Of a stretch of DNA of 45,439 nt, positions 25,043 through 25,784 are shown in pieces; positions within the stretch are counted from its first letter, which is position 1; each line of letters opens with the position of its first letter. The translations under genes were made by a program, and so were the position numbers. This DNA comes from a virus (lineage: Duplodnaviria; Heunggongvirae; Uroviricota; Caudoviricetes). The notes beneath the pieces are model-generated. The model was not told the DNA's origin. It made no database searches and saw only the letters and a list, made by a program, of their open reading frames with translations. Where the stretch lies: IMG/VR virus record IMGVR_UViG_2541047931_000012. One strand, given 5' to 3'.

Positions 25043-25224
25043 GAATCCTCCCGGCCGGGATAATATTGTGAGTAAAATAAGGAGCGGGCTGAAGTCCGGA
25101 AGTTACAGGACAATGGCAGAAGAGAGACGACAGCCCGCAATTCGAAAAAGACCGCGCAGTTGCGCAGCCTTATGAATTCTGGTTAAAATCCATTCGATTA
25201 TAAAAATGTATATCTCATGCTGTT

Positions 25225-25250
25225 GCCCGAACCCACTCGGGCTTTTTTTT
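25225..25250 (+). terminator. Rho-independent terminator (gcccga-acccac-tcgggc followed by T8)
   Basis: 6-bp GC stem followed by tttttttt at 25243-25250. Confidence 0.55.
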
Positions 25251-25262
25251 GCCCACAAGAAA

Positions 25263-25284
25263 GCCCCTCCGGAGAGGGGCTAAA
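25263..25284 (-). terminator. Hairpin gcccctc-cgga-gaggggc, candidate minus-strand terminator or RNA structure
   Basis: 7-bp GC stem with a 4-nt loop; on the minus strand it is followed by tttcttg. Confidence 0.4.
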
Positions 25285-25534
25285 GCCGCGTATCTGTATC
25301 ATCATGCACATGATGCCGGGTGCCTCCCGGTGAGTTCAGTATCAGCACCTGAACCCGCACAGAAAGGATAAGGGTCGGTGACAAAACACCAGTTGCTGAT
25401 TGCCCCTCCGCACAGGGGGATTCACCATGCCAGTTTCTTTTAACAAACTCCCCGCAAAACAGACAACTGTCAACCGTCTGAATTGTGAGACATTTAAAAA
25501 AAAGCCCGCAAAAGCGAGCCGGGAAAAATAAGTC

Positions 25535-25611
25535 TGGCGCGTTGTACTGGATTCGAACCAGTGACCGATTGCTTAGAAGGCAATTGCTCTGTCCGGCTGA
25601 GCTAATAACGC
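25535..25611 (-). tRNA. argO: tRNA-Arg (anticodon UCU, reads AGA)
   Basis: Hand-folded cloverleaf on the minus strand with a 3' CCA, TPsiC loop GGTTCGAATCC and anticodon loop CUUCUAA. Confidence 0.75.
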
Positions 25612-25624
25612 AGGGTACAGATAA

Positions 25625-25701
25625 TGGACCGCCATCGAGGACTCGAACCCCGCGCAACCAGCTTCGAAGGCTGGCGCTCTATCCTGATGAGCTAATGGCG
25701 G
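25625..25701 (-). tRNA. argN: tRNA-Arg (anticodon UCG by hand-fold)
   Basis: Minus strand with a 3' CCA, TPsiC loop GGTTCGAGTCC and anticodon stem CCAGC/GCTGG with loop CUUCGAA; the anticodon assignment needs software confirmation. Confidence 0.65.
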
Positions 25702-25708
25702 TATGTGA

Positions 25709-25784
25709 TGGTGGCCCTTGCTGGATTTGAACCAGCGACCTGGCGATTATGAATCGCTCGCTCTCACCACTGAGCTAAAGGGCC
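25709..25784 (-). tRNA. ileZ: tRNA with CAU anticodon (Ile2/lysidine type or Met), ileZ-like
   Basis: Minus-strand GGCCCTTTAGCTCAGTGGTGAGAGC...GGTTCAAATCC...GGGCCACCA with anticodon loop UUCAUAA. Confidence 0.7.

Follow-up and report, generated by a model that had tools for sequence, protein, structure and literature searches.

In the lambdoid prophages of Escherichia coli O157, the Q-antiterminated pR′ region has convergent small RNA (sRNA) genes downstream (Tree et al. 2014, PMC4104026). In the Shiga toxin 2 (Stx2) prophage Sp5 these are AsxR (EcOnc02) and EcOnc27, which lie 3′ of stx2B, and the same sRNA organisation is found in Sp3, Sp4, Sp9, Sp10, Sp11, Sp15 and Sp17 (PMC4104026). EcOnc27 is listed as Hfq-bound (Table S2 of Tree et al. 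2014, PMC4104026). STnc100 sits 75 nucleotides (nt) downstream of stx2 (PMC12370729); eleven STnc100 copies are transcribed in EDL933, one of them (STnc100_4) confirmed by Northern blot (PMC5331693), and the order pasD/STnc100, sialate esterase, holin, lysozyme recurs in many genomes (Zhu et al. 2026 preprint). Here we describe the corresponding region in a 45,439-nt tailed-phage sequence (Caudoviricetes; IMG/VR record IMGVR_UViG_2541047931_000012), referred to throughout as the window, in which the late genes lie on the minus strand. The region very probably controls the late genes of a lambdoid prophage that is stx-negative, in which the toxin junction is unoccupied and the sRNA pair is present.

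The overall layout is that of Sp5/933W of O157:H7, with the same gene order, argO terminator, convergent sRNA pair, esterase leader, NanS-p-type esterase and P21-type lysis genes. The main difference is a 1335-bp stx2AB cassette that Sp5 carries at the equivalent of window ~25491-25497, whereas the window has none. In addition, the Q of Sp5 is of a different type, with just short stretches matching at 77%, and, relative to Sp5/933W, the window methylase is truncated, the 5′ region of the sRNA antisense to the late transcript (the anti-sRNA) is different and the downstream module is ~79% identical. The non-Stx Sakai prophages Sp3, Sp4, Sp9, Sp10, Sp11 and Sp17 (PMC4104026) share with the window a sense sRNA and an antisense anti-sRNA of 51-60 nt after pR′ and are likewise toxin-free, but the 5′ region of the window anti-sRNA is none of AgvB, AsxR or EcOnc03. 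A non-Stx example from O145:H28 RM13514 also resembles the window, with a tRNA-Ile, two tRNA-Arg, the sRNA region and a SASA esterase. A first-pass annotation of the window, made from the letters alone, had recognised the scaffold of an Stx phage lacking stx; each of its constituents (Q, the tRNAs, the NanS-p-type esterase and the P21-type lysis genes) is recovered here, and searches for stx stay at chance level.

The position of the toxin site was mapped by aligning the window, in phage orientation, with Sakai Sp5 and the Stx2a phages Stx2_EH0505 and Stx2_KH16-043 by blastn. Homology to all three runs through the tRNAs and the terminator that follows them to 25497 and restarts at 25492, and between these breakpoints Sp5 holds 1335 bp comprising the stx2 promoter region, stx2A and stx2B. 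Because homology stops and restarts in this way with stx2AB in between, the slot is a few-base junction immediately behind the argO terminator, an unoccupied stx (moron) insertion point and module boundary at 25491-25497. The first-pass annotation had taken the whole of 25043-25534 as a vacant toxin slot, a placement that the alignment does not bear out. At the junction itself, AAATG alone separates the T-run of the argO terminator from TCTCACAATTCAG. PhiR12, which has neither tRNAs nor stx, carries the near-identical sequence TTTTTAAATACCTCACAATTCAG directly upstream of its STnc100 promoter and shows TTTTTAAAT..CTCACAATTCAG as in the window.

The remaining ~450 bp recur beyond stx2B in Stx2 phages and beyond stx1B in the Stx1 phage BP-4795, whose genes follow one another as Q, stx1AB, an STnc100-like gene, an anti-sRNA and yjhS. 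Since it follows stx in Stx1 and Stx2 phages alike, the sRNA pair is a constant module on the downstream side of the toxin site, and the toxin operon of Stx phages is an extra cassette set between the argO terminator and the STnc100 promoter. Of 5426 complete E. coli genomes, at least 1028 match a 221-nt junction probe without a break, among them O157:H7, O145:H28 and O103:H2 strains. Where E. coli genomes match the probe partially, the matches break at query positions 121-124, which correspond to window 25497-25500, and this point is a recurrent module boundary.

The first-pass annotation had offered two origins for the missing toxin, an stx-negative relative or a toxin-loss derivative; the comparison favours the former and disfavours the latter, and this prophage lineage most likely never had stx at 25491-25497. 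Descent from an Stx phage by precise deletion of stx at the moron junction would be in keeping with the clean junction and with the upstream flank (Q to tRNAs), which is 91-94% identical to Stx2 phages. Over the 3.8-kb region, moreover, the closest records in the phage collection are Stx2a/Stx2d phages, and repeated stx loss has been floated for stx-less esterase-sRNA loci (Zhu et al. 2026 preprint). The downstream flank, however, is 74-79% identical to the aligned Stx2 phages and, counted over matched pieces, does not exceed 84% in any record of an Stx phage, as against 96-100% to non-Stx prophages. A search for stx remnants, as the first-pass annotation had suggested, revealed none in the gap above chance: tblastn of Stx2A and Stx2B against the window gave a best E of 0.07, outside the gap, and word-7 blastn with the whole Sp5 stx cassette remained at chance level, with only a 23-nt match (83%, E 2.1) in the gap. 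The stxA and stxB genes by which an Stx-converting phage is recognised are accordingly absent. Deletion also sits poorly with the unoccupied junction being so frequent in E. coli genomes and with the near-identical sequence that the tRNA-less, stx-less PhiR12 has upstream of its STnc100 promoter. Finally, the window-type allele of the anti-sRNA, described below, is linked to stx in 0 of 22 listed IMG/VR contigs with enough flank, against 15 of 15 for the AsxR allele, and is found in none of the 50,697 records of the phage collection. We therefore consider toxin loss improbable.

Beyond the junction lies the sRNA module. The ~490 bp at 25043-25534 had been described in the first pass as empty, without an ORF (open reading frame) and with a convergent terminator pair. 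The terminators are indeed found by the terminator scan, on the minus strand at 25281-25262 and on the plus strand at 25225-25242, and there is no long ORF, although mechanical ORFs of 40-51 amino acids (aa) are present. The stretch is not empty, however, as Rfam places an STnc100 RNA on the minus strand and an AsxR-family sRNA on the plus strand there. Each of the two sRNA genes accounts for one of the convergent terminators, which are Rho-independent.

The STnc100-family sRNA (25251-25459, minus strand) matches Rfam RF02076 with 131.7 bits (gathering score 47) over model positions 1-206 of 206. It is the counterpart of EcOnc27 in Sp5 and related to PasD. Like STnc100/EcOnc27/PasD, it matches the full Rfam model and lies between the stx slot and the esterase gene, whereas its middle segment is hypervariable between loci, as seen in an alignment of five loci (A1). 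Its terminator lies at 25262-25281 (terminator scan plus fold), and a promoter is predicted from the sequence at 25437-25466, consisting of TTGTCT, a 17-18 nt spacer and (TG)TTAAAA/TAAAAG. The TTGTCT and TTAAAA hexamers are invariant across the five loci of A1 while the spacer is variable, and because of this invariance the pair is preferred over TTGACA at 25473-25468, which as a -35 element has no acceptable -10 element 16-18 nt downstream.

The STnc100-like stretch might instead, or in addition, code for a small protein, given the mechanical ORFs of 40-51 aa, the 'hypothetical protein' annotated there in some genomes and phages, and ribosome coverage values above 2 for some of the STnc100 copies of EDL933 (PMC5331693). 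Coverage is very low for other copies (PMC5331693), though, and the calls of the Prokaryotic Genome Annotation Pipeline (PGAP) are partial, with that in O145 on the opposite strand. More decisively, the homologous stretch has 5- and 20-nt indels in A1, so that no reading frame is conserved in the gap, and together with the hypervariable middle region these disrupt any common frame. We rejected a small protein on these grounds and regard it as very unlikely. Scarcely credible is the view implicit in the first-pass annotation that the gap is a truly non-coding spacer whose convergent terminators merely insulate the tRNAs from nanS-p, for although the terminators are real, no long ORF is found and PGAP leaves the gap blank in the near-identical prophage of strain N25, both Rfam matches are full length, the promoter hexamers are kept although the spacer between them varies, and the homologues in O157 are Hfq-bound and detected by Northern blot.

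The second sRNA of the pair, a ~53-56-nt RNA of the AsxR/AgvB class (25195-25250, plus strand), is matched by the Rfam AsxR model RF02703 at 25195-25247 with 63.0 bits, exactly the gathering score of 63. The match to AgvB (RF02702) is 43.4 bits, below the gathering score of 56, and the GcvB-target mimic of AgvB, CACAACA, is absent from the window anti-sRNA, the Rfam alignment having a 7-nt gap there. A terminator followed by a T-run is found by the scan at 25225-25242, and a promoter (TTGCGC, an 18-nt spacer and TAAAAT) is predicted from the sequence at 25160-25189; the same -10 region, TGGTTAAAAT, is found upstream of AsxR in Sp5. Members of the class are 51-60 nt long, with a conserved 3′ region of ~42 nt and a variable 5′ region of 14-18 nt (Tree et al. 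2014, PMC4104026). The window RNA has their characteristics: it lies at the moron site, opposite in sense to the late transcript, its 3′ region, which includes the terminator, is conserved and its 5′ region is variable. From ~nt 17 on, it is identical to the published EcOnc03.

The exact 3′ core of this RNA is common to at least 120 IMG/VR viral contigs; among the 120 listed, the 5′ region takes four discrete forms: AgvB (58 contigs), the window type (25), EcOnc03 (21) and AsxR (15). Among listed contigs with enough flank, stx is linked to none of 55 of the AgvB type and to 5 of 20 of the EcOnc03 type; as the contigs are a redundant sample, these allele counts and the stx linkage, including that given above for the window and AsxR types, are indicative only. 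In complete E. coli genomes, the window-type allele is found in ~179 of 5426. The exact allele sequence was not found in a literature search, and the window anti-sRNA appears to be a fourth 5′ allele (CGAUUAUAAAAAUGUA) beside the published AgvB, AsxR and EcOnc03, which is the only mildly new point of this analysis.

AsxR, the anti-FnrS sRNA of the Stx2 phage, resembles the window RNA in length, position, orientation and terminator hairpin, and 11 of the first 16 nt are the same. The remaining 5 of 16 differ, some of them inside the proposed FnrS-pairing stretch, and AsxR lies 3′ of and antisense to stx2AB, whereas the window RNA is not accompanied by stx. The predicted duplex with the 3′ end of FnrS is -5.0 kcal/mol for the window allele versus -9.0/-10.4 for AsxR; shuffled controls overlap both, and the metric has low power, as even AsxR is not separated from shuffled seeds. 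Tentatively, with the odds somewhat against it, the window-type RNA might sponge a core sRNA other than FnrS or GcvB, which would give prophages of extraintestinal pathogenic and neonatal meningitis E. coli (ExPEC and NMEC) a specificity of their own. At A1 columns ~320-400, where the window and Sp5 have the anti-sRNA, Stx2_KH16-043, PhiR12 and the O145 non-Stx prophage (L002, L003 and L006) have an unrelated terminator-bearing element (GCCCGCGCTGGGAGACGCGGGC...). Even the antisense partner gene is thus swappable.

Several points weigh against this reading of the region. The published length of EcOnc27, ~235/247 nt, exceeds the ~175 nt implied by the proposed promoter. The 5′ ends of both sRNAs are predicted from homologues and from conserved promoter-like hexamers, and their expression in the present prophage is likewise presumed. 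The anti-sRNA score only equals its Rfam threshold, and the allele counts come from the redundant contig set. Lastly, it is formally conceivable that stx was once lost precisely and that the downstream module then recombined.

The tRNAs upstream of the junction conform to the first-pass assignment of three minus-strand genes with CAU, UCG and UCU anticodons that resemble ileZ-argN-argO. Across the 45 kb, ARAGORN finds exactly three tRNAs, each encoded on the minus strand: a CAU tRNA of the ileZ type (25709-25784; Rfam 72 bits; 75/76 identical to Sakai Sp5 ileZ2), a tRNA-Arg (UCG) of the argN type (25625-25701; 56 bits; 74/77 identical to argN2) and a tRNA-Arg (UCU) of the argO type (25535-25611; 64.4 bits; 75/77 identical to argO2). 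Identity to the ileZ, argN and argO genes of the Sakai Stx2 prophage Sp5 is therefore 96-99%, and the tandem order downstream of Q is that of the ileZ-argN-argO cluster of Stx-type lambdoid phages. The CAU tRNA is labelled Met by ARAGORN and, in N25, by PGAP, while the 75/76-identical gene is labelled Ile in Sakai and in O145 RM13514 (PGAP); as a member of the ileZ type it would be expected to carry lysidine and to read AUA (Ile). Usage of AGA (9.7 per 1000 codons) and AGG (6.2 per 1000) in the late genes, in a small sample of only 1443 codons, fits the usual rare-codon rationale for such tRNAs.

Just upstream of the cluster, the promoter scan finds TTGAAG-17-TATTAT at 25794-25822 (minus strand). 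The TATTAT -10 element is retained in Sp5 and in the O145 non-Stx prophage, whereas the sequence farther upstream diverges, and this site is likely the promoter of the tRNAs in the lysogen. The cluster ends in an intrinsic terminator after argO (25496-25520, minus strand), in which the scan places a stem at 25520-25503 and a T-run of eight T at 25503-25496. It folds with -11.5 kcal/mol (z -2.6) and is kept in Sp5, Stx2_EH0505 and Stx2_KH16-043.

Farther upstream, the late antiterminator Q (26255-26650, minus strand) belongs to Pfam PF06530, Phage_antitermQ (E 1.6e-52), and its longest ORF has 131 aa; in the near-identical N25 prophage, the PGAP call has 126 aa and is labelled 'antiterminator Q family protein'. 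As the first pass had noted, Q is followed by a terminator, here a tR′-like intrinsic terminator at 26166-26186 (minus strand) with an 8-bp stem and then a T-run. The presumed pR′-tR′ leader (26163-26235, minus strand) gives a weak isrK-like Rfam match (18 bits, E 0.33), which may be a short leader RNA or chance. Between the terminator and the tRNAs lies a truncated DNA methyltransferase pseudogene (25825-26103, minus strand) that retains the C-terminal part only (Pfam N6_N4_Mtase positions 137-220 of 221), in line with the PGAP remark 'incomplete, missing N-terminus' for the N25 copy. Because Stx2_KH16-043 has 1182 bp more at window ~26122, just downstream of tR′, there appears to have been either a clean deletion in the window or an insertion in that phage.

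Downstream of the sRNA pair, the first-pass call of a NanS-p-type esterase holds. The gene (23081-25042, minus strand) encodes a 653-aa sialate O-acetylesterase with the domain set of NanS-p, namely DUF1737 at the N terminus, the catalytic SASA domain in the middle and the NanS-p domain at the C terminus (Pfam DUF1737, SASA and DUF6645). It matches NanS (PDB 3pt5) with E 1.4e-118 and the NanS-p C-terminal domain (PDB 6yp6) with E 3.7e-61, and its full-length identity to the esterase of the Stx2a phage Stx2_EH0505 is 60%. By homology, it would presumably act on 9-O-acetylated sialic acid.

The esterase is preceded by a 5′ untranslated region (25043-25144, minus strand) that is highly conserved in A1 and contains a long hairpin (25084-25138) and the Shine-Dalgarno sequence GGGAGGA. 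Immediately upstream, a terminator-like hairpin and U-run (25145-25171, minus strand) has a 10-bp stem at 25171-25148 (-16.5 kcal/mol, z -3.9), which is kept in all five A1 loci; the fold of 25043-25180 as a whole has a z of -3.3. Across the five loci, the leader at 25043-25180 is far better conserved than the coding sequence, which has 65-79% nucleotide identity. This conservation, far above that of the coding sequence, and the hairpins at 25171-25148 and 25084-25138 together suggest that 25043-25180 is a cis-regulatory leader.

Following the esterase, two short ORFs (DUF1378, then DUF826) precede a holin of the P21 family; a DUF1327 ORF comes next, and a phage lysozyme and Rz complete the series. 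The holin is a 71-aa P21-type class II holin (22149-22364; Pfam PF04971 'Bacteriophage P21 holin S', E 9e-33), the endolysin is of the phage lysozyme family (21197-21730; PF00959, E 3.1e-24) with an N terminus, GLSAAVLALIAAGAPA, that reads as hydrophobic and may or may not be of the signal-anchor-release (SAR) kind, and the Rz spanin lies at 20461-20898 (PF03245, E 7.5e-37); the minus strand encodes all three. The order P21 S-family holin, endolysin, Rz is that of a phage-21-type lysis cassette, the type assigned in the first pass.

In phage orientation, the region thus runs from Q and tR′ through the truncated methylase to ileZ-argN-argO with its own promoter and terminator, and on to the unoccupied moron junction. 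Beyond this come the tail-to-tail sRNAs, one phage-sense (STnc100/EcOnc27-type) and one opposite (AsxR/AgvB-class), then the structured leader, nanS-p and the P21-type lysis genes. Gene content, family memberships and the location and frequency of the junction are shown directly, whereas the following is what we infer for expression, transcript 5′ ends, read-through by Q and sRNA targets. In a lysogen, transcripts from pR′ would halt at tR′, while the tRNAs and both sRNAs would be transcribed from their own promoters and end at their own terminators. The tRNAs would use the promoter whose TATTAT -10 element is conserved across divergent loci, the STnc100-type RNA would start from TTGTCT-N17/18-TTAAAA and the anti-sRNA from TTGCGC-N18-TAAAAT. 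As suggested by work on homologues, the sRNAs would bind Hfq and act on host RNAs. Upon induction, Q-modified RNA polymerase would pass each of the four phage-sense terminators and continue into nanS-p and the lysis genes.

The host context is that of extraintestinal E. coli. The 3.8-kb region is 99.9% identical to the prophage of N25, a cerebrospinal fluid isolate, and many extraintestinal isolates from humans, birds and dogs carry it at 98-99.5% identity. The nearest genomes, 98-99.9% identical, are of the ExPEC/NMEC type, and the prophage type is common in extraintestinal E. coli. The N25 prophage, the closest relative, adjoins mlrA (yehV; positions 2858-4866 of the N25 sequence, L004), the classical Stx1 prophage integration site in O157:H7. 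The window ends at the stop codon of the integrase, so its own integration site is outside it. The N25 prophage also has an IS1 insertion between its lysis and terminase regions (L004 28379-29552, compared with window 17955-18322), whereas the window is without IS1.

Two further segments of the window were observed upstream of the late region. A C4 antisense RNA (29268-29353, minus strand; Rfam 72 bits) and isrK (29378-29450, minus strand; 60.7 bits) lie directly upstream of an ORF (28607-29221, minus strand) with Bro-N and P22_AR_C antirepressor domains, and window 28607-29450 resembles a nin-region antirepressor module under RNA control. A 650-aa ORF at 29833-31785 (minus strand) has a NACHT/AAA NTPase domain and is possibly an anti-phage NACHT protein. 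Around this ORF, megablast finds no match to the N25 prophage over 28268-32129, whereas the sequence on both sides matches that prophage at >99%, which suggests that the stretch is variable cargo.

The architecture described here is already known and abundant: lambdoid prophages that lack stx but have this scaffold and sRNA pair have been documented before, and the window is an ordinary toxin-free relative of Stx phages of a kind common in E. coli, so that it matters little as a discovery. What the comparison does provide is a corrected map, in which the toxin site spans just a few bases behind the argO terminator and the ~490-bp gap is regulatory cargo that standard annotation leaves blank. 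The sharp junction could serve as a simple marker for scoring occupied versus unoccupied stx sites. The window-type allele of the anti-sRNA, which is frequent among extraintestinal strains, offers a modest, testable lead to the ways in which prophages may rewire host sRNA networks.

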